NCBI RefSeq assembly: GCF_053078305.1
Contig: NZ_CP166879.1
Reading direction: 5' to 3' (one strand)
Length of the DNA: 64,000 bases
Part shown: piece by piece, positions 3,118 to 60,141 of the stretch
How positions within the stretch are numbered: position 1 is the first letter of the stretch
How the letters are laid out: every line of letters begins with the position of its first letter
Made by a program: the position numbers and the translations under genes
The notes under the pieces: generated by a model
Databases searched by the model: none
What the model was told of the DNA's origin: nothing
Seen by the model: only the letters and a program-made list of their open reading frames with translations

Positions 3118-3342
3118 TTAGTGGTTATTCGCTGCCAAATCGGCTTCGCTTAGCTGGGTGGCCGCGAGCACCTGGTCACGATCAATGCCCTGTTCCAGCA
3201 TGCGCAAAGCAATTTTAATGGCTTGTTCATGCATACCTTCCTGCAAACCTTCTAATTTACCTTGCTGCAAACCTACTAATTTACCTTCTTGCCAGCCAAT
3301 TTGATGTCCTTCCTGCCGTAGCCGTTCAGCAATAGTCATCAA
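3118..3342 (-). CDS. ypaA: Stand-alone Rpn C-terminal-domain protein (ypaA-like; tandem duplicate of the rpnE 3' end)
   Basis: The 74-aa product [21 protein letters not shown]...[12 protein letters not shown] is nearly identical to the last 80 aa of the adjacent rpnE. It keeps its own AAGGAGAG SD ahead of the ATG. Confidence 0.6.
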   Translation of the reverse strand: MMTIAERLRQEGHQIGWQEGKLVGLQQGKLEGLQEGMHEQAIKIALRMLEQGIDRDQVLAATQLSEADLAANNH

Positions 3343-3351
3343 TCTCTCCTT

Positions 3352-3594
3352 TTAATGACAGTTCGGAATATCAGCATCAGTGAGTTGGGTTGCCGCCAGC
3401 ACAATCTCACGTTCAAAGCCCTGCTCCAGCATGCGCAAGGCAATTTTAATGGCTTGCTCATGCATGCCTTCCTGCAAACCTTCTAATTTACCTTTCTGCA
3501 GACCCTCCAATTTACCTTGCTGCAAACCTTCTAATTTACCTTCCTGCCAGCCAATTTGATGCCCTTCCTGCCTCAGCCGTTCAGCAATAGTCAT
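3352..3594 (-). CDS. Candidate nested small ORF (RpnS-like) inside rpnE, using an internal SD+ATG
   Basis: An in-frame ATG at 3594 is preceded by AAAGGAGAGATTA. This is the same SD-ATG arrangement that heads the stand-alone duplicate at 3342. The product would be 80 aa ([11 protein letters not shown]...). Confidence 0.4.
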
Positions 3595-17462: not shown

Positions 17463-17665
<203 letters not shown>

Positions 17666-41481: not shown

Positions 41482-42771
41482 CTATGCTTTGTTTAGTCGT
41501 TGGGGCACCTGTGGGACATAAGTACATAGCTTTCTGTTTAGTACTTCTACCTGGGACTGGTTATTGTCTTTCATCCATGCACCGTAAACATTGTAAACCA
41601 TCTGGGCATTCGCATGTCCCATCTGGTTGGCTATGAAGTTTGGATTTGCTCCGGCAGTTAAAGCCCAGCAAGCATAAGTATGCCGAGACTGATACGCTTT
41701 TCTATGGCGAATTTTTGCTCGTTTTAATGCAGATTCCCATGTTCTGTTGATGGATGTTACGGCATAATGAACTCCTGAGTTACCTGTGCGATCTAATATC
41801 TGAGGATTGAAAACAAAGCTGCATGAGTGAGTGCTTGTCCGGCCATACTCTCGCAGCTTTACTTCTATCTGATATTGTTTACCAAGCCTGGTTAATGTCG
41901 CCTGATTTTTTAATACGTCAATTGCTGGCTGTATGAGTTGTATTACCCTGTTTGTTCCTGCATCTGTTTTGGGTAGTGTAAATTCCTTTGTCTGAGTGTA
42001 ATTCCTTTTGACGGTCAAGGTACCCGCTTCCAGATCGATATCCTCCCATGCTAGCCCACACAGTTCGCCATGCCGCATCCCGGTATATACAGCCAGCGAC
42101 CAGAAATTTTTAGTTTGCTGGTGGTGGCACGCATCAATCAGTCTGGCAAACTCATCTTTTGTTAGTGGATCGGGAGGTGTTTTCGCTCTTTTCAGTGATG
42201 GAAGCTCACTGAAAGGGTTTTTGCCTATATACCCATTGTTTGCCGCAAAACGGAACATCCCGGAGATAATTGTCATATAGCTATTTACAGTAGGTACACT
42301 ACGACCTTTAATAGGCTTCCTCTGATTTTTTCCTGGCAACTGATATCCCGTTAATAATTCTTTACGAAAAATGAGAACATCTTCCTGTGTAATTGATGAT
42401 GCCAGTTTGTTCCCTCCAAGGCAGTCAAGGCAATTTCGGATAGCTGATTTGTATCTGACCATGGCATTTGCTGTTATTTCCATTTTCTTAAGCTCAAGCC
42501 ATTTTTCCGAAAGTGCCTTAATGGTTATCTCTTTTTTTCCCAGACCAAAATGTTTCAGGTTAGGGGAATTAGGGAACTGCGCGGCGTAGTCGAAGCTCCC
42601 CATTCTTATTGCAAAACAAACGGAAGTGCGAAGTTCACCTGCGATCTTCCGGTTTTTGGCGGTGTCAGGAACACCGAGGTTTTCTCTGACACGTTTGCCG
42701 TTATAGTGAAACCATATGCGGAGTGATCCTCCATGGTTTTCAACGCCTGTCGGGTATGATGCGTTACTCAT
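41482..42771 (-). CDS. int: Phage integrase (tyrosine recombinase)
   Basis: 429 aa. The C-terminal catalytic region has SRHTYACWAL...GHANAQMVYNVYGAW (R, HxxR, Y). Terminal position in the prophage. Confidence 0.9.
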   Translation of the reverse strand: MSNASYPTGVENHGGSLRIWFHYNGKRVRENLGVPDTAKNRKIAGELRTSVCFAIRMGSFDYAAQFPNSPNLKHFGLGKKEITIKALSEKWLELKKMEITANAMVRYKSAIRNCLDCLGGNKLASSITQEDVLIFRKELLTGYQLPGKNQRKPIKGRSVPTVNSYMTIISGMFRFAANNGYIGKNPFSELPSLKRAKTPPDPLTKDEFARLIDACHHQQTKNFWSLAVYTGMRHGELCGLAWEDIDLEAGTLTVKRNYTQTKEFTLPKTDAGTNRVIQLIQPAIDVLKNQATLTRLGKQYQIEVKLREYGRTSTHSCSFVFNPQILDRTGNSGVHYAVTSINRTWESALKRAKIRHRKAYQSRHTYACWALTAGANPNFIANQMGHANAQMVYNVYGAWMKDNNQSQVEVLNRKLCTYVPQVPQRLNKA

Positions 42772-54241: not shown

Positions 54242-54319
54242 AGCCGGAGATATCCAGTAGACATTTTCCCCCTGAGCATTCAAATCAGAAAAAGTATGGT
54301 TACAGCGGAGTACAGAATA

Positions 54320-54745
54320 ATGCGTGATATCCAACAGGTTCTGTCCCGATGGGGTGCATGGGTGGTAAATAATCATGAGAGTGTGGCATGGTCCGGCGTC
54401 GCTGCCGGATTTAAGGGAGTGATCCCATCAAAGGTTAAATCACGGCCTCAGTGTACCGATGATGATGCGCTGATTATCAGCAATTGCATGGCGCAACTGA
54501 ACGTCAACAACAGCGATTTGCATGATTTTCTGTATGATTATTATGTGTTCGGGATGACGCTTATGGGACTGGGCCGTAAGCATGAGCGCTCTGATTGCTG
54601 GGCCGGGCGGGTACTGCAAAAAGCTGAAGGTGTTATTGAGGGGATGTTGATTATGCAGGGAATAAAACTGGAAATGGACAGATACGTTGAGCGTGAACGA
54701 TCAGGGGCACAGGTCAGTCAGTTTTCCGGACATACGGGAAATTGA
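54320..54745 (+). CDS. Q: Late-gene antiterminator Q (933W-type family)
   Basis: ORF 54296..54745. I prefer Met at 54320 ([20 protein letters not shown]...[12 protein letters not shown]...[12 protein letters not shown]), which closely matches my recollection of Stx-phage Q. GGAG lies 9 nt upstream. Confidence 0.8.
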
Positions 54746-54769
54746 AAGCGCGGGGTTTTACTGTAGAAT
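54742..54769 (+). promoter_or_regulatory. Strong sigma70-type promoter overlapping the Q stop codon (hok-mRNA promoter and/or PR' equivalent)
   Basis: TTGAAA (54742-54747), a 16-nt spacer, then TAGAAT (54764-54769). The predicted start near 54775-54777 coincides with the 5' end of the hok-type mRNA fold. Confidence 0.6.
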
Positions 54770-54774
54770 GACTG

Positions 54775-55164
54775 CGGGTGCTTGAGGGGGTCTGCCTCGG
54801 GCATGCTGCCGTAAGGCAGACGGAGAAAAGCCCCAGTTAACATTACGTGTCCTGCAAGACGCTTAACATTAATCTGAGGCCCAATCTATGTCACACAACC
54901 GTAGGTTAGCCTCTTACGTGCCGGAAGGCAAGGAGAAGCAGTCTATGAAGCAGCAAAAGGCGATGTTAATTCGCCCTGATCGTCATCTGTTTAACCGTCA
55001 TAGTGACGGCACTGGTAACGAGGAAAGACCTCTGCGAGGTACGGATCCGAACCGGCCAGACGGAGGTCGCTGTCTTCGTAGACTACGAATCTGAGAAGTA
55101 AGAGACCAGGCGGGGGAGTAATCTCCCGCCACCTCTGATGTGTCAGGCATCCTCAACGCACCCG
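54775..55164 (+). other. hok/mok/sok-type type I toxin-antitoxin transcription unit (full-length mRNA architecture)
   Basis: The 5' CGGGTGCTTGAGG (54775-54787) is complementary to the 3' CCTCAACGCACCCG (55151-55164), as in tac/fbi fold-back pairing. The mok-like leader starts at ATG 54888. Leader sequences resemble plasmid R1 hok (GCTTGAGG..TCTGCCTC..., CTATGTC...AGCCTCTTAC...GCAAGGAGAAG). A 3' hairpin lies at about 55109-55130. Confidence 0.7.
54945..55101 (+). pseudogene. hok: hok/gef-family toxin gene disrupted by a +1 frameshift (extra T at 54970/54971)
   Basis: As written, the ATG at 54945 gives MKQQKAMLIRPDRHLFNRHSDG... Deleting one T restores MKQQKAMLIALIVICLTVIVTALVTRKDLCEVRIRTGQTEVAVFVDYESEK, a canonical Hok/Gef sequence, with stop at 55099-55101. 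Confidence 0.7.
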
Positions 55165-55275
55165 TACTTTATTTGTCATATGCTCCGCAAAATGCAGGTT
55201 GTCGTTGCAACCCGTGCGGTAATTTTTTGTGTGCGAGTGCTCAAAAAACGTTGATTTTCATAAAAGGATAATTTT

Positions 55276-58176
55276 ATGCTGCCAGACCAGCGACCAGCGA
55301 CCAGCGACCAGCGACCAGCGACCAGCGACCAGCGACCAGCGACCAGCGACCAGCGACCAGCGACCAGCGACCAGCGACCAGCGACCAGCGACCAGCGACC
55401 AGCGACCAGCGACCAGCGACCAGCGACCAGCGACCAGCGACCAGCGACCAGCGACCAGCGACCAGCGACCAGCGACCAGCGACCAGCGACCAGCGACCAG
55501 CGACCAGCGACCAGCGACCAGCGACCAGCGACCAGCGACCAGCGACCAGCGACCAGCGACCAGCGACCAGCGACCAGCGACCAGCGACCAGCGACCAGCG
55601 ACCAGCGACCAGCGACCAGCGACCAGCGACCAGCGACCAGCGACCAGCGACCAGCGACCAGCGACCAGCGACCAGCGACCAGCGACCAGCGACCAGCGAC
55701 CAGCGACCAGCGACCAGCGACCAGCGACCAGCGACCAGCGACCAGCGACCAGCGACCAGCGACCAGCGACCAGCGACCAGCGACCAGCGACCAGCGACCA
55801 GCGACCAGCGACCAGCGACCAGCGACCAGCGACCAGCGACCAGCGACCAGCGACCAGCGACCAGCGACCAGCGACCAGCGACCAGCGACCAGCGACCAGC
55901 GACCAGCGACCAGCGACCAGCGACCAGCGACCAGCGACCAGCGACCAGCGACCAGCGACCAGCGACCAGCGACCAGCGACCAGCGACCAGCGACCAGCGA
56001 CCAGCGACCAGCGACCAGCGACCAGCGACCAGCGACCAGCGACCAGCGACCAGCGACCAGCGACCAGCGACCAGCGACCAGCGACCAGCGACCAGCGACC
56101 AGCGACCAGCGACCAGCGACCAGCGACCGTAAATCAAGAAAGTCTGTAAAATCTGTTGAACCAGACATTGCCGACCGGGCTAACAGCTGGCTCAAATCTT
56201 ATGGACTTGATTACAAACTGGAGCAGGCACCACTTAACAACGAGATCGATAACGCACTGGATGCTTATTTTTCGAAAAATGGCGGCGCAGGCGGTAATCG
56301 TCCCGACGTAAAACTCCTTGTTCAGGACAAATACGGCAAGCAGTATCCCGTTCTCATCGAGTATAAAGGCTACAAGGACAGGCTTATCAGACTTGGCAGC
56401 AACGGTATTATTGAGAACAAAGATGCCAGAAAAGAATGGAATTTTAAAAATATTAATGGATACGCGGTGAATGGCGCAGTCCATTATGCCAACGCACTTC
56501 TTCAGTTCACCAATTACCCTGATATTATTGCTATTGGTATGACCGGCTGGCGCGATGATGATACAGGCGAACTGCATCATGAAATCGGCGTGTGGTACGT
56601 ATCAAAGAATAATTTAGGAGCCGGGCAGAAGGTTGGTGAATTCACCGACTTATCATTCCTTGCTGACAAAAATGTTGATGGATTTCTCAACAAGATAAAG
56701 CTGCTTAATCTTCCTCCCGAAGAACTGGAAAAAATCAAGGCCAGCAAAGAGGAAGAGATAGACACGCGACTTTCCCGTCTGAATAACGATATTTACCAGA
56801 ATGAAAAGGGGCTTGGTGAAAGCGATCGTGTTTACCTTGTTGTGGCTACCGTTATTGCAACGTTGGGGATTCCGGGAAAGTTAGCACCGCTGGATAAAAA
56901 AGAACTGACCTCTTCAACGGAGGAGGACTTGCGTGATGGTGATATTATTTTCAGGAAAATAAGGAATTTTTTAAGGCTGAAAGCTGTTCCTGAAACAAAA
57001 AGAGAAATGATTTTGCGCTCGTTGCAAAATACGCTGTGGACTGAAAACATTAACAAACCAGTCAACGGTGAAAGCCAGTTAAAGCGCGTGTTTGTTAAAG
57101 TTGTTGATGATCTTGGGGAGTATTACAAAATCGGACTGACCACCGATTTTACGGGCAAACTGTTTAATGAGATGTATCGCTGGCTTGGATTTACGCAGGA
57201 CAAACTCAATGACGTCGTTCTGACACCACCTTATGTTGCCACATTGCTGGCACGACTCGCCAGAGTAAACAAAGATTCCTATGTGTGGGATTTTGCTACA
57301 GGTTCTGCGGGATTGCTTGTGGCTGCAATGAATGAAATGCTCATTGACGCCAGAGAAAATATTCACTCACCGAATGAACTACAACTTAAGGAAGCGCAAA
57401 TCAAGGCTGAACAGCTTCTTGGCCTTGAGGTGTTATCCAGTATTTATATGCTGGCCATCCTGAATATGATTTTGATGGGGGATGGTAGCTCGAATATCCT
57501 CAATAAAGACTCGCTAGCCGATTTTGACGGCAAGTATGGATTTGGGAAAACAGGAGAAAAATTCCCTGCGGACGCATTTATTCTCAATCCTCCGTATTCA
57601 GCTAAAGGTAACGGCATGATTTTCGTGCAGAAGGCGCTGTCGATGATGGATAAAGGCTATGCTGCAGTGATTATCCAGAGTTCAGCCGGCACAGGAAAGG
57701 CTACGGAGTACAACAAAAAAATACTCAAGGAAAATACCTTGCTGGCAAGCATCAAAATGCCTGCGGATCTGTTTATTGGTAAATCAAGCGTTCAGACGTA
57801 CATTTACGTTTTTCAGGTAAAAATTCCGCATAACGCGAAACAGGCTGTTAAGTTTATCGACTTTTCCAATGACGGCTATGCTCGCTCTAATCGCAAAAAG
57901 GCAAGAAACAATCTTGTTGATGCCGATCGTGCAAAAGAGCGTTATCAGGAGGTTGTGGATCTGGTTCACTTCGGGAAAGGTTGCCTTAATATCTTTACGG
58001 AGGATGAATATTTTGAGGGAACAATCGATCCTGATAGTGGTGAGGACTGGAATCAGACTAGGCCAGTAGATACCAGACCGACACTGGAGGATTTTAAAAA
58101 GACGGTTGGCGACTATCTTGCGTGGGAGGTGTCAAAACTTCTTCAGGGGCGTGATGCGTCAGAAAAAAAGCAGTAA
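55276..58176 (+). CDS. Restriction-modification polypeptide: 40 x PATSDQR repeat leader + PD-ExK (HSDR_N-like) nuclease + gamma-class N6-adenine methyltransferase (BcgI-A-like, Type IIB/IIG layout)
   Basis: ATG 55276 follows AAAAGGA. After the repeat come NRPDVKLLV...YPVLIEYKG (PD...ExK), then YVWDFATGSAGLL (SAM motif I) and FILNPPYS (motif IV). No SF2 translocase domain is present. It is followed by an HsdS-like gene. Confidence 0.75.
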   Translation: MLPDQRPATSDQRPATSDQRPATSDQRPATSDQRPATSDQRPATSDQRPATSDQRPATSDQRPATSDQRPATSDQRPATSDQRPATSDQRPATSDQRPATSDQRPATSDQRPATSDQRPATSDQRPATSDQRPATSDQRPATSDQRPATSDQRPATSDQRPATSDQRPATSDQRPATSDQRPATSDQRPATSDQRPATSDQRPATSDQRPATSDQRPATSDQRPATSDQRPATSDQRPATSDQRPATSDQRPATSDQRPATSDQRPATSDQRPATSDQRPATSDRKSRKSVKSVEPDIADRANSWLKSYGLDYKLEQAPLNNEIDNALDAYFSKNGGAGGNRPDVKLLVQDKYGKQYPVLIEYKGYKDRLIRLGSNGIIENKDARKEWNFKNINGYAVNGAVHYANALLQFTNYPDIIAIGMTGWRDDDTGELHHEIGVWYVSKNNLGAGQKVGEFTDLSFLADKNVDGFLNKIKLLNLPPEELEKIKASKEEEIDTRLSRLNNDIYQNEKGLGESDRVYLVVATVIATLGIPGKLAPLDKKELTSSTEEDLRDGDIIFRKIRNFLRLKAVPETKREMILRSLQNTLWTENINKPVNGESQLKRVFVKVVDDLGEYYKIGLTTDFTGKLFNEMYRWLGFTQDKLNDVVLTPPYVATLLARLARVNKDSYVWDFATGSAGLLVAAMNEMLIDARENIHSPNELQLKEAQIKAEQLLGLEVLSSIYMLAILNMILMGDGSSNILNKDSLADFDGKYGFGKTGEKFPADAFILNPPYSAKGNGMIFVQKALSMMDKGYAAVIIQSSAGTGKATEYNKKILKENTLLASIKMPADLFIGKSSVQTYIYVFQVKIPHNAKQAVKFIDFSNDGYARSNRKKARNNLVDADRAKERYQEVVDLVHFGKGCLNIFTEDEYFEGTIDPDSGEDWNQTRPVDTRPTLEDFKKTVGDYLAWEVSKLLQGRDASEKKQ
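55285..56128 (+). repeat. Perfect heptanucleotide tandem repeat (GACCAGC) x 120 plus a partial GACC
   Basis: I checked the phase at the start of every 60-nt line and it is consistent. The six-frame translations are perfectly periodic (PATSDQR / WSLVAGR). I saw no variant unit. Confidence 0.97.
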
Positions 58177-58211
58177 ACTCCCGTCTTGCAGAGCTTGAGC
58201 GGGAGTTTATT
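58164..58211 (+). promoter_or_regulatory. Candidate -1 programmed ribosomal frameshift (or A7 slippage) cassette at the A/S junction
   Basis: A_AAA_AAG lies at 58164-58170 in the correct zero frame (GAA AAA AAG). Then comes a stem, with core ACTCCCG (58177-58183) / CGGGAGT (58200-58206), extendable to about 12 bp over 58172-58211. The -1 frame is the S-subunit frame. Confidence 0.45.
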
Positions 58212-58250
58212 AAATCTGGTGGTAAATGGGAAGAATACACAATCGAAAGA

Positions 58251-59360
58251 TTGTTCAGTATTCAGACACCTAAAAAGAAATTTAATGCCAATAAATTAAC
58301 ATTTAATGGCAACTATCCTTATGTTGCCAGAGGAAGTAACAATAACGGCATAAAAGGATATATAGATGAAGATGAATTATATCTCAACCCGGGGAATACA
58401 ATTAGCTTTGGTCAGGATACTGCGACTATGTTCTATCAGGAAAACGCATATTTCACAGGTGATAAAATAAAGATTTTTTCTCTCAGGCATGGAGAGTTAA
58501 ATTCGCGAATTGCTTTTTTTCTTATATCAGCAATGAAAAAATCTTTTTCAACGTTTAGTTGGGGGAGTAGCTCTTTTAATGAGAATGTTCTCAATAAGGT
58601 AAAGATAAATATACCTACGTTTAATAATGTTCCTGCATATAATTATATGGTAAAGTATATAGAAGAGCTGGAAGCGGCCCATATAGAAGAGCTGGAAGCG
58701 GCCCATATAGAAGAGCTGGAAGCATACCTGATAGCTGCTGGGCTGAGTGATTACCAACTAACGGAAAAAGATTATCTTATCCTGGAACATTTTAAAAATA
58801 TTGAATTTTCAGGCTTTCCTGTTACTGAGTTATTCTCAGTGTGCAATACAGGAAACATATTGTCTAGAGACATCATAGAAAATAGTGGGGATGTTCCTTA
58901 TCTTTGTGCTAGCCGTGAGAATAACTCTGTTAGTTCTTATATCGCCTATGATAACTCACTCTTGGAAAAAGGGAACTGTATTTTTATTGGTGGTAAGACA
59001 TTCGTTGTAACTTATCAGGAGCGAGACTTTTTTTCAAACGACAGTCATAATTTGCGACTCTATGTTAACAATGAGGATGGAAGGACAAAGTTTGCTTATT
59101 TGGGCATTATTTCATGTATTTATAGATCTATTTCACATAAATATTCATGGGGGGATAGTGTTAGTAATAGAAAAATTAAGAACGATGTTGTTTGGTTGCC
59201 AGTAAAAAATAAGTCACCTGACTTTTGTTATATAAATGACCTTATTTCAGTTGTTCATAAGCTTGTCATTAAAGATGTTGTCCAGTACGCAGAACGCAAA
59301 ATGAACGCATACAGGCAAGCTATAACAAGTCGCGGTTATGATGATTCTGGTGTCAGTTAA
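58251..59360 (+). CDS. Specificity (S) subunit with two target-recognition domains (HsdS / BcgI-B-like)
   Basis: 369 aa from TTG 58251. The same frame is open back to 58155 with no ATG/GTG/TTG, and it encodes S-like sequence (RLAELEREFIKSGGKWEEYTIERLF). Two TRD-like halves are separated by a helical IEELEAAH repeat. Low GC. Confidence 0.7.
   Translation: MFSIQTPKKKFNANKLTFNGNYPYVARGSNNNGIKGYIDEDELYLNPGNTISFGQDTATMFYQENAYFTGDKIKIFSLRHGELNSRIAFFLISAMKKSFSTFSWGSSSFNENVLNKVKINIPTFNNVPAYNYMVKYIEELEAAHIEELEAAHIEELEAYLIAAGLSDYQLTEKDYLILEHFKNIEFSGFPVTELFSVCNTGNILSRDIIENSGDVPYLCASRENNSVSSYIAYDNSLLEKGNCIFIGGKTFVVTYQERDFFSNDSHNLRLYVNNEDGRTKFAYLGIISCIYRSISHKYSWGDSVSNRKIKNDVVWLPVKNKSPDFCYINDLISVVHKLVIKDVVQYAERKMNAYRQAITSRGYDDSGVS
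58659..58723 (+). repeat. 24-bp tandem repeat (2 full units plus 17 nt) encoding IEELEAAH in the central helix of the S subunit
   Basis: atagaagagctggaagcggcccat at 58659-58682 and 58683-58706, then atagaagagctggaagc at 58707-58723. Confidence 0.9.
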
Positions 59361-59660: not shown

Positions 59661-59899
59661 GTATCCGTTCAACAGGAATGTTACATACCTCACAATTAAG
59701 TCAGTTGAAGGTTGTCTGCCCGGATGAGAATTTGTTAGAAAATTTCTGCATGGTGAATCCCCCTGAGCGGCGGGGCATATCAGCGTCACAGGTGTTTCTG
59801 TTTTACCTCTATCCTTTCTGTGCGGGTTCAGGTGCTGATACTGAACTCACCGGGAGGCACCCGGCACCATGCAGTATACAGAGATTAGGCATATACCAG

Positions 59900-59924
59900 G
59901 GCCCCTCATAGCAGGGGCCTTTTT
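59900..59924 (+). terminator. Intrinsic terminator upstream of nanS-p
   Basis: GGCCCCT / AGGGGCC stem with a 6-nt loop, followed by T5. Confidence 0.7.
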
Positions 59925-60141
59925 ACATGCAAAAAAAAGCCGCCCCGGGAAGAGCGGTTGGCAAGAAGAAAAGCAATATGAACAATTAATTAACGCTGCG
60001 AATAATACCTTACAGTAATCACCCTGCGCAACTGTGAGGAGTGTATTTCTTTTTTGCGGGTGGTTGTCTTTTTCCCTTGTGTTTCGGGACTTCCGTTCAC
60101 TCCTTATCTTATTCAGTACATTATCCCGGCCGGGAGGATTC

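Follow-up and report, generated by a model that had tools for sequence, protein, structure and literature searches.

Switches made of intragenic simple sequence repeats (SSRs) are known from several bacterial genes. In the Type III mod phasevarions of Haemophilus, Neisseria, and Moraxella, tetra- or pentanucleotide repeats lie within mod, are translated into a peptide repeat, and turn a DNA methyltransferase ON and OFF, and in lic1 of Haemophilus influenzae, CAAT repeats are combined with several ATG codons in different frames, which results in strong, weak, or no expression depending on the number of repeats. In Escherichia coli, SSR contingency loci are generally considered scarce. Here, we describe an E. 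coli locus in which 120 copies of the heptanucleotide GACCAGC open the coding region of a predicted restriction-modification (RM) gene on a lambdoid prophage. The locus lies in a stretch of 64,000 nucleotides from contig NZ_CP166879.1 (RefSeq assembly GCF_053078305.1), which was analyzed as a whole, provides all positions given below, and will be referred to as the window from here on. We conclude that the length of this tract probably gates production of the full-length enzyme, a reading to which we assign a probability of roughly 0.75.

Background on the Type III mod phasevarions is provided in PMC7383803 and PMC6789123. With respect to Type I systems, a survey of SSR-controlled hsdM genes places the repeats mostly in the 5′ coding region, with ACAGC[10-40] in Mannheimia haemolytica and CGAGA[3-10] in H. 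influenzae as examples (Atack et al. 2019, PMC7383803); the survey was limited to Type I genes in REBASE, and neither E. coli nor heptamers appear in its main text. Among enzymes related to the one described here, BcgI is organized as A2B and BsaXI as (RM)2S, and these archetypes cleave on either side of a bipartite site (PMC3592470, PMC11997821), and NgoAVIII is described in PMC6789123 as a BcgI-like example from Neisseria. In full-text searches of the literature, we found no description of the locus, of GACCAGC repeats in RM genes, or of a marker for multiple-locus variable-number tandem repeat (VNTR) analysis at this site, and no paper that links ribosomal frameshifting with RM systems.

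Results

A perfect heptanucleotide tract separates the start codon from the enzyme

The tract consists of 120 uninterrupted GACCAGC units with zero variant units, as stated in an earlier note on this DNA that had been made from the letters alone. Direct reading, a regular-expression scan, and Tandem Repeats Finder gave concordant results, with the last of these reporting positions 55285-56128 at a period of 7, 120.6 copies, 100% matches, 0 indels, and a score of 1688. No second tract of this kind was found when the whole window was scanned by regular expression, and a perfect 840-bp array cannot have originated by chance. As shown in Table 1, the tract starts 9 nt after the first base of an ATG codon with a Shine-Dalgarno (SD)-like sequence in front of it, and the open reading frame (ORF) that begins at this codon runs through the tract into the RM enzyme. 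Because the coding strand of the unit lacks T, the tract is free of stop codons in all six frames, and DQRPATS is the repeat encoded in each of the three forward frames. The unit has no A on the minus strand, which explains why two ORFs (55176-56195 and 55274-56137) run across the tract in the opposite direction; their length follows the number of units (n), and we rejected them as genes. The "YXWGXW repeat-containing protein" or "hypothetical protein" that RefSeq places on the opposite strand of the tract is likewise spurious.

As 7 is not a multiple of 3, each gain or loss of a single unit would change whether the enzyme is in frame with the start codon. Both alternative frames are closed by TAA codons right after the tract, in agreement with the earlier note. 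At n mod 3 = 0, which includes n = 120 in the window, MLP-(DQRPATS)40 would be read on into the nuclease-methylase, which would carry a disordered (DQRPATS)n/3 tail. At n mod 3 = 1, translation would end at the stop codon 56147-56149 and, at n mod 3 = 2, at 56130-56132, so that termination would occur 6-25 nt past the tract and no full-length enzyme would be made. Units would be added or removed by slipped-strand mispairing during replication. Neither strand of the tract folds better than shuffled sequences, and since neither makes a stable hairpin, a hairpin-driven mechanism was dropped, and simple out-of-register re-annealing is likely.

Table 1. Positions in the window of the tract, the RM and S genes, their junction, and neighboring prophage features
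Feature	Position	Strand	Basis or remark
Shine-Dalgarno-like AAAAGGA, 7 nt before ATG 55276	55262-55268	+	Kept in all related loci
ATA, degenerate copy of second start codon (ATG#1)	55268-55270	+	Frame joining the enzyme at n mod 3 = 1
Start codon of the restriction-methylase (MLP...)	55276-55278	+	ATG-CTG-CCA kept in alleles with 2-120 units
Whole RM ORF, 966 aa	55276-58176	+	MLP, then 40 x DQRPATS, then 683 aa
Heptanucleotide tract, 840 bp, encoding 40 x DQRPATS	55285-56124, partial unit GACC to 56128	+	Regular expression, Tandem Repeats Finder
TAA closing the +2 frame just past the tract	56130-56132	+	Frame reading
TAA closing the +1 frame past the tract	56147-56149	+	Frame reading
PD...ExK nuclease motif (P60 D61 ... 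E79 Y80 K81 of the post-tract protein)	56305-56367	+	Invariant in 24 homologues
First in-frame canonical start (GTG) 3′ of the tract	56467-56469	+	Residue 115 of the post-tract protein
Methylase motif I DFATGSA (57289-57309) to motif IV NPPY (57586-57597)	57289-57597	+	Invariant alignment columns
S (specificity) frame, -1 relative to RM, open from 58155	58155-59360	+	Pfam Methylase_S x2; PADLOC Specificity_II PDLC03591
Candidate slippery heptamer A_AAA_AAG, in frame with RM and 3 nt short of its stop codon (58174-58176)	58164-58170	+	Junction analysis
Predicted hairpin ACTCCCG - 16-nt loop - CGGGAGT just after the RM stop	58177-58206	+	RNAfold -20.3 kcal/mol, z -3.9
24-nt in-frame repeat, IEELEAAH x 2.8, perfect	58657-58723	+	Central S region between the two target recognition domains
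Integrase	41482-42771		PHROGs
CI-like repressor	48816-49514		PHROGs
Antiterminator Q	54296-54745	+	Pfam Phage_antitermQ, 2.5e-45
hok/sok-type toxin-antitoxin module, between Q and RM	54776-55094	+	Rfam sok RF01794, 97.6 bits, 54776-54947
Small RNA STnc100	59719-59930		Rfam, 167.6 bits
DUF1737/SASA esterase	60034-62055
Endolysin	62987-63520		PHROGs

Production of the full-length enzyme is predicted to require translation through the tract

The first ATG, GTG, or TTG codon in the enzyme frame after the tract is GTG 56467, which lies downstream of the invariant nuclease residues D61, E79, and K81, and the earlier observation that this frame has no start codon until inside the nuclease domain is thereby borne out. 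In an alignment of 24 homologues, invariant residues start at residue 10 after the tract. A conserved N terminus from residue 10, combined with the lack of a start codon before residue 115, indicates that the full-length enzyme needs read-through of the tract. Neisseria, Providencia, Methylophilaceae, and many metagenomes contain homologues of 677-689 aa at 72-74% identity, which begin M-x(3-10)-KS(I/V)EPNIADL; those without a tract start about 7 codons before the shared conserved N terminus. The database proteins of E. coli and Salmonella read MLP-(DQRPATS)n-K(S/L)RK-x-VKSVEP with differing n. Further, a metagenomic phage relative (L145) has ATGCTGCCA-AATCAGC-GACCAAC-AAAT... at this place, that is, two degenerate units and no array, and its SD sequence is stronger, with GGGAGG at the site of the AAAAGGA in the window. 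This proto-repeat allele implies that ATG-CTG-CCA is the ancestral start and marks where the array arose. Together with the homologues that lack a tract, it places the ancestral start at ATG 55276 and so supports the claim of the earlier note that translation has to cross the tract.

The position of the first internal starts, just past the catalytic residues of the nuclease and ahead of the methylase domain, also suits a different switch, in which restriction alone would be turned on and off: an internal start (GTG 56467 or a later ATG) would give a nuclease-less methyltransferase, and modification would be constitutive. The problem of self-restriction upon a change from OFF to ON would then vanish, but GTG 56467 is without a good SD sequence and the folding and assembly of the truncated protein are hypothetical. 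RefSeq pipelines do call just such truncated ORFs, and in several genomes a truncated "HsdM" is started at the equivalent of GTG 56467, although these calls are merely the longest canonical ORFs. We consider a switch of restriction alone improbable.

In most of the related loci that were read, a second ATG (AAAAGGATGATTTTATG; context AAAAGGATGATTTTATGCTGCCA), termed ATG#1, occurs 8 nt upstream of the conserved ATG and in another frame. Database proteins beginning MILCCQTSDQRPATS use the frame of ATG#1, and an allele with 9 units and a 4-nt junction is in frame solely via this codon; the third frame carries a stop at the ATG#1 position in related loci. The site reads ATA in the window and in L005 and ACG in L016. 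The description of ATG 55276 as the only start preceded by an SD sequence thus applies to the window but not to most relatives. As ATG#1 abuts the SD sequence, it is probably a weak start. We note that two of the three phases could yield protein in relatives with ATG#1, which could rescue n mod 3 = 1, probably weakly, whereas the ATA in the window means that only n mod 3 = 0 can give protein here.

Outside the prophages, Salmonella enterica GCA_007809255.1 (L147) has a homologue at 85% identity that is located beside genes of the kind found on integrative conjugative elements (among them RAQPRD, DUF3262, and DUF2976), on a contig that begins exactly where the tract would be.

Copy number varies between near-identical flanks

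The gene is carried by 29 of 5426 complete E. coli genomes. Tract lengths derived from the BLAST coordinates of the two flanks ranged from 112 to 693 bp in 27 RefSeq E. coli genomes and were exact multiples of 7 in 22 of them, and clean counts from fetched sequences gave n = 3, 3, 9, 9, 16, 16, 19, 34, 64, 80, 83, 83, 99, and 120. The search of other genomes for matching flanks that the earlier note had proposed thus revealed 3-120 units between identical flanks, a range that spans the 27 E. coli genomes, one sequenced phage, and those IMG/VR prophage contigs on which the tract is complete. Members of one allele group have 0 or 1 base differences in their flanks over 809 nt while the tracts differ. 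For example, tracts of 657, 609, and 560 bp occur in three complete E. coli genomes with mutually identical flanks, one base off those of the window (840 bp), and one of 712 bp (about 101 units), versus 840 bp, occurs in an IMG/VR contig whose flanks and RM gene are identical to those of the window. In another allele group, the tracts of strains G6/7, G1/2, and G8, which we take to be probiotic Symbioflor strains, measure 581, 649, and 693 bp. Two O111:H8 isolates with 0 substitutions across 3.5 kb downstream nevertheless have n = 83 and n = 56.

The 34 tracts of at least 100 bp (16 or more units) are distributed over the three phases as 8/13/13 (chi-square p = 0.48 versus uniform). The post-tract ORF is intact (681-682 aa) in all eight of the complete loci, including those that are out of frame, and the ratio of nonsynonymous to synonymous substitution rates (dN/dS) between the three allele groups is 0.20, 0.058, and 0.053, with dS up to 1.46. 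The frame-switch reading of the earlier note is supported by the variation of n between identical flanks, by the presence of all three phases among long tracts, and by the intact enzyme ORF. As judged by these sequences, the pattern is the signature of a reversible contingency locus and not of a decaying pseudogene. The features expected of a contingency gene that were found here are a non-triplet intragenic repeat, early stops in the other frames, a polymorphic n, and an intact ORF under selection. We therefore class the locus as a putative SSR contingency locus, exceptional in its unit length, size, host, and carrier.

The short alleles (n = 3, 3, 9, and 9) are all in frame and the long ones random in phase, which would also be expected of a neutral runaway VNTR, that is, of an array that grew by slippage in a gene with little or no expression in lysogens, with frame changes that occur without being selected as a switch and with working enzyme encoded solely by alleles with n = 3-9. 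Under such a scenario, it is difficult to see why the enzyme ORF has stayed intact at a dN/dS of 0.05-0.2 in lineages with long out-of-frame tracts and why most alleles have kept a second start codon in a second frame. The purity of the array would fit neutral expansion, as slippage alone can keep an array pure. The failure to find a promoter directly upstream and the site downstream of Q, which suggests late-operon expression, would fit a gene that is silent in lysogens, but independent frame-shifting SSRs occupy functionally canonical positions in the S gene of relatives (see below). On balance, neutral expansion seems unlikely to us.

Points against the switch and reliability of the unit count

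A number of observations weigh against a gate set by tract length. The exact n depends on the assembly, a caveat that the earlier note had raised and that is borne out by other long-read assemblies with errors inside the tract. The assignment of the window to the ON state, made in the same note, holds with regard to the reading frame, but no convincing sigma-70 promoter was found directly upstream of the RM gene. At n = 120, a 280-aa DQRPATS tail precedes the nuclease. A TTG at codon 30 in one allele group, which is not that of the window, could permit initiation independently of the tract. The in-frame state is not enriched among long alleles (8 of 34), and there is no sign of selection for ON. 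Further, BcgI-type methylases are reported to prefer hemimethylated DNA (PMC6789123, citing Kong 1998 and Smith 2013), and with such a preference a change from OFF to ON after several OFF generations could be self-toxic; this harm might be avoided by late-only expression or by a truncated methylase produced from an internal start. Finally, the prophages of G6/7, PhiR12_3, and UCPROB-002 are 0-5 substitutions apart in 5.5 kb, and all have n = 83.

The count of 83 occurs in four records, namely G6/7 (L022/L208), phage PhiR12_3 from ECOR13 (L144), UCPROB-002 (L207), and O111:H8 7-32 9A (L205). That three near-identical prophages share it indicates that the switching rate is not extreme; either the tract can be stable across independent isolates, or the strains are very recently related. 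The tract is thus not reshuffled in each passage.

Inside the tract, 2015C-3121 has a poly-C run, 2012EL-2448 lacks 1 nt, and both G1/2 and L005 have odd units; in the erroneous records (L019, which is NZ_CP027340.1, L018, L021, and L005), the errors amount to about 70 C in a row, a deletion of 1 nt, and odd units of 10-12 nt. In 5 of the 27 RefSeq genomes, the tract length is not divisible by 7. Contigs assembled from short reads end at the tract, and a cluster of 841 protein sequences, whose representative is marked partial by NCBI, starts directly after it. Such errors, together with the IMG/VR contig that has about 101 units between flanks identical to those of the window, could be taken to mean that the array, or its exact 120 units, results from mis-assembly or a consensus error. 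The tract is, however, present at one same site in more than 40 independent records, the copy in the window has no aberrant unit, and clean tracts of 80-99 units occur in other complete genomes. It follows that a long tract is certain, whereas its exact number, and hence its phase, is uncertain: the figure of 120, and with it the "ON" state, is as dependent on the assembly as every other count. The chance that the array itself or its count in the window is an artefact appears next to negligible.

RM is predicted to be a nuclease-methylase fusion of a BcgI-like system

For the 683-aa post-tract part, PADLOC gave a full-length match to REase_MTase_IIG (PDLC03616; E 4.8e-234) and, in addition, a match to a second Type IIG profile of 637 positions. 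In Pfam, N6_Mtase is detected along with a weak, sub-threshold match to VRR_NUC. PADLOC, Pfam, and the alignment thus agree with the earlier identification of a restriction-modification gene, with a nuclease at the N terminus followed by a methylase. In an AlphaFold2 model, which was built from a shallow alignment and is poor (predicted local distance difference test score of 59.7), the region of the nuclease motif is folded as helix, helix, two strands, helix, and three strands, an arrangement compatible with the core of an α/β nuclease. A Foldseek search with this low-confidence model retrieved HsdM proteins, Type IIB BsaXI (8w0p), and Type IIG BpuSI and is supportive only, and phmmer found no match among the PDB sequences. 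A gene of phage PhiR12_3 that is 98% identical is annotated "BcgI alpha chain-like." Given that an N-terminal PD-(D/E)xK nuclease, the N6-adenine methylase motifs I and IV, and an adjacent HsdS-like subunit were all found, RM and S are predicted to be a BcgI-like two-gene Type IIB/IIG restriction-modification system.

The S frame lacks a start codon of its own and follows a candidate frameshift site

The match of the S frame to the PADLOC profile Specificity_II covers positions 23-328 of 341. The first canonical start in this frame, TTG 58251, is situated inside the conserved N terminus, and no ATG, GTG, or TTG precedes the conserved N-terminal Trp in the window, a feature shared by nearly all of the phage-borne relatives; ordinary S starts are found, as exceptions, in L162 from Methylophilaceae (ATGA overlap), L190, and L160 from Neisseria. 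ATT 58209 is unlikely to serve as the S start, as it is not conserved (GAA in L002 and GTA in L173).

Near the end of RM lies A_AAA_AAG, the slippery heptamer of dnaX and IS911, and a predicted hairpin follows the RM stop (Table 1). Among 19 diverged junctions, 18 contain either G_GGA_AAR or A_AAA_AAG, and L145 has A_GTA_AAG only; all 19 have a hairpin of 11-14 bp with a predicted energy of -16 to -24 kcal/mol and z of -1.2 to -9.7. RNAalifold analysis of 13 sequences returned 14 pairs, 2 of them with compensatory double changes, and most of the variation is compatible with G-U pairing (4 of 182 cells broken). The arms of the hairpin double as codons for conserved S residues, which limits the covariation signal. 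No Rfam family matches the RM/S junction. The combination of a slippery heptamer, a hairpin, and an S frame without its own start suggests that S is made as an RM-S fusion by -1 frameshifting, and we regard the junction as a tentative candidate for a programmed -1 ribosomal frameshift site, with the odds even at best.

With no start codon of its own, S probably relies for its production on ribosomes engaged in translating RM, as it would if frameshifting is real, and the 5′ tract would then gate the whole system by one switch. A ratio of RM to S set by frameshifting would match the (RM)2S stoichiometry of Type IIB enzymes. Fusion of a methylase to a specificity subunit is compatible with function in the case of an engineered EcoKI M-S fusion (PMC3510504). 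A phage-borne relative at 56% identity (L203, 2456-5711) has RM and the first half of S in one ORF of 912 aa, followed by (GACA)17.2 and then an ORF with the second target recognition domain (TRD). This arrangement, which looks like a natural RM-S(TRD1) fusion with a tetranucleotide switch, makes an RM-S fusion plausible.

Between its two TRDs, S contains the repeat IEELEAAH, and the number of copies differs among relatives (1.8 in the PhiR12_3 group, 2.8, and 3.8 in L003). By analogy with the HsdS subunits of EcoR124I and EcoR124II, in which the number of TAEL repeats sets the length of the spacer in the target site, the IEELEAAH repeat may set the spacer length of the recognition site. Some relatives have a frame-shifting SSR, (GCGGACTC)n, between the TRDs of S, with 4.9 copies in L001 (9311-9349), 26.9 in L003 (9632-9846), and 14.9 in L145 (3990-4108); this array is absent from the S gene of the window. 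The presence of further frame-shifting SSRs in the same enzyme family, here in the middle of S, argues for a lineage selected for switchability.

Taken together, these features raise the possibility of a multi-layer stochastic system with the tract as its master gate, in which S would be made only as a frameshift fusion with RM that fixes the RM:S ratio and in which the repeats in S would vary specificity. We propose this broader scheme tentatively and would put the odds somewhat against it.

The GACCAGC heptamer also occurs in unrelated genomes

A scan of contigs detected GACCAGC in at least 5 copies at more than 120 loci from unrelated phyla (L024-L143), none of which exceeds 18 units; a single Planctomycetota metagenome-assembled genome (maxbin.317) accounts for dozens of these contigs. 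There are 0 homologues of RM or S among these loci, and the neighboring Pfam domains belong to unrelated housekeeping genes, except for one methylase in Pectobacterium, so that a universal heptamer module linked to RM genes was rejected. In the exception, Pectobacterium carotovorum DSM 30168 (L031, 6520-7662), ATG TC(GACCAGC)17, which encodes DQRPATS, opens an EcoRI_methylase gene (Pfam, 7.9e-131). This methyltransferase is unrelated to the enzyme of the window, and both other frames stop soon after the repeat.

The recurrence of the heptamer in many unrelated genomes, and the encoding of one peptide in every frame, would be in line with a role of the tract at the level of DNA or protein, either as a near-Chi array that modulates RecBCD near a nuclease gene or as a long disordered N-terminal tether that tunes the enzyme through its length. 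The E. coli Chi site is GCTGGTGG, and the unit on the minus strand, GCTGGTCG (GCTGGTC(G)), matches it at 7 of 8 positions, 120 times in tandem. The mismatch, however, sits within the core of Chi, and by our reasoning the orientation is opposite to that active for RecBCD entering from the right cos end. Moreover, where the heptamer occurs in other phyla, it shows no linkage to RM genes, and working alleles with just 2-3 units show that length is not required. We consider a role of this kind highly improbable and retain the switch by tract length as the preferred reading.

The locus is an accessory cassette between Q and the lysis genes

The first 41 kb or so of the window are chromosomal and the remainder is the left part of a lambdoid prophage, and the gene content according to Pfam and PHROGs confirms the carrier named in the earlier note. 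The order of the prophage genes is integrase, anti-repressor, CI-like repressor, helicase and primase, Q, hok/sok, RM, S, STnc100, esterase, and endolysin; an ORF at 54888-55094 within the hok/sok-type module is annotated as Hok/Gef in relatives. We examined the best sigma-70-like site (54742-54769) as a candidate for pR′ and dropped it, since it is located just upstream of hok/sok and is probably the promoter of that module. By its position between Q and the lysis genes, the RM/S pair is an accessory ("moron") cassette of the prophage. The order Q, RM, S, lysis genes recurs in PhiR12_3, in the metagenomic phage L145, and in a Providencia prophage (L161). In the Shiga toxin-producing E. coli (STEC) strain 04-00955 (L001, 6530-12029), the RM-S cassette lies between Q/hok and tRNA genes, which are followed by stx2b, and in O111:H8 strains (L205/L206), it is just upstream of tRNA genes, where the fetched stretch ends. 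The window lacks tRNA genes, and the interval from the S gene to the esterase leaves no room for an stx ORF.

Further tandem repeats were noted on the chromosomal side of the window, within 3234-3547 and 17496-17664, namely two arrays of a 24-nt unit, with 2.5 and 3.4 copies, and a repeat of 87 nt present 1.9 times.

Discussion

The biological role of a switch such as the one proposed here would be stochastic ON/OFF heterogeneity among lysogens or phage bursts, possibly a form of bet-hedging between defense, self-toxicity, and the uptake of DNA or phage; alternatively, the switch could serve to produce mixed bursts of methylated and unmethylated phage. If this is true, stochastic ON/OFF switching would alter superinfection immunity and the methylation of progeny phage and, hence, the host range of Shiga toxin (Stx)-type phages. 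The proposed SSR contingency locus is found on transmissible lambdoid prophages of STEC, enteropathogenic, probiotic, and commensal E. coli strains and, in some strains, sits right upstream of stx2 in the same interval between Q and the lysis genes. Surveys would miss it because RefSeq truncates the gene and places a spurious ORF on the minus strand and because assemblies from short reads are interrupted at the tract. The presence of the locus on a sequenced phage, PhiR12_3 (host ECOR13), would make the dynamics of a very long non-triplet repeat accessible to E. coli genetics, and the RM/S junction provides a candidate case in which programmed frameshifting of a restriction system could be put to a direct test. 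To our knowledge, if the multi-layer scheme were correct, this would be the first RM system with a subunit stoichiometry set by ribosomal frameshifting and the first documented SSR contingency locus on temperate E. coli phages, including Stx-converting ones.

Compared with the described systems, the junction of RM and S resembles dnaX and IS911 in that A_AAA_AAG is in phase and is followed, after a short spacer, by a predicted stable hairpin, with the downstream ORF in the -1 frame. It differs from both in that the arms of the hairpin encode conserved S residues and in that a few relatives have an ordinary start with an ATGA overlap. Within S, the IEELEAAH repeat is, like TAEL in EcoR124, an in-frame repeat between two TRDs with a copy number that varies among alleles, but its unit is 8 aa instead of 4 aa. 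As in lic1, two start codons in different frames lie upstream of the intragenic SSR in most relatives; unlike in lic1, the second ATG is lost (ATA) in the window, ATG#1 abuts the SD sequence, and the target is an RM enzyme and not a lipopolysaccharide gene.

With BcgI, BsaXI, and NgoAVIII, the system shares the Type IIB layout, that is, an RM protein in which a gamma-class N6-adenine methylase follows an N-terminal PD-ExK nuclease, plus a separate S protein with two TRDs, whereas it differs from these enzymes, for which a 5′ SSR is unreported, in its 5′ SSR and in an S frame without its own start codon. In comparison with the Type III mod phasevarions, the enzyme class, unit length, tract size, and carrier are different. 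A phasevarion is defined by a methylation-dependent regulon, and of the phasevarion layout invoked in the earlier note, the ON/OFF arrangement of the enzyme stands, but a methylation-controlled regulon has no support. The closest likeness in layout is to the SSR-controlled hsdM genes (PMC7383803), with which the locus has in common a non-triplet repeat in the 5′ coding region of the methylase subunit, a copy number that varies among strains, and a predicted ON/OFF switch by frameshift. It differs from them in a unit of 7 nt compared with 5 nt and in up to 120 copies compared with at most about 40, in an enzyme that is a predicted BcgI-like nuclease-methylase fusion and not the HsdM of a three-subunit Type I system, and in being hosted by E. 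coli and carried by a lambdoid prophage.

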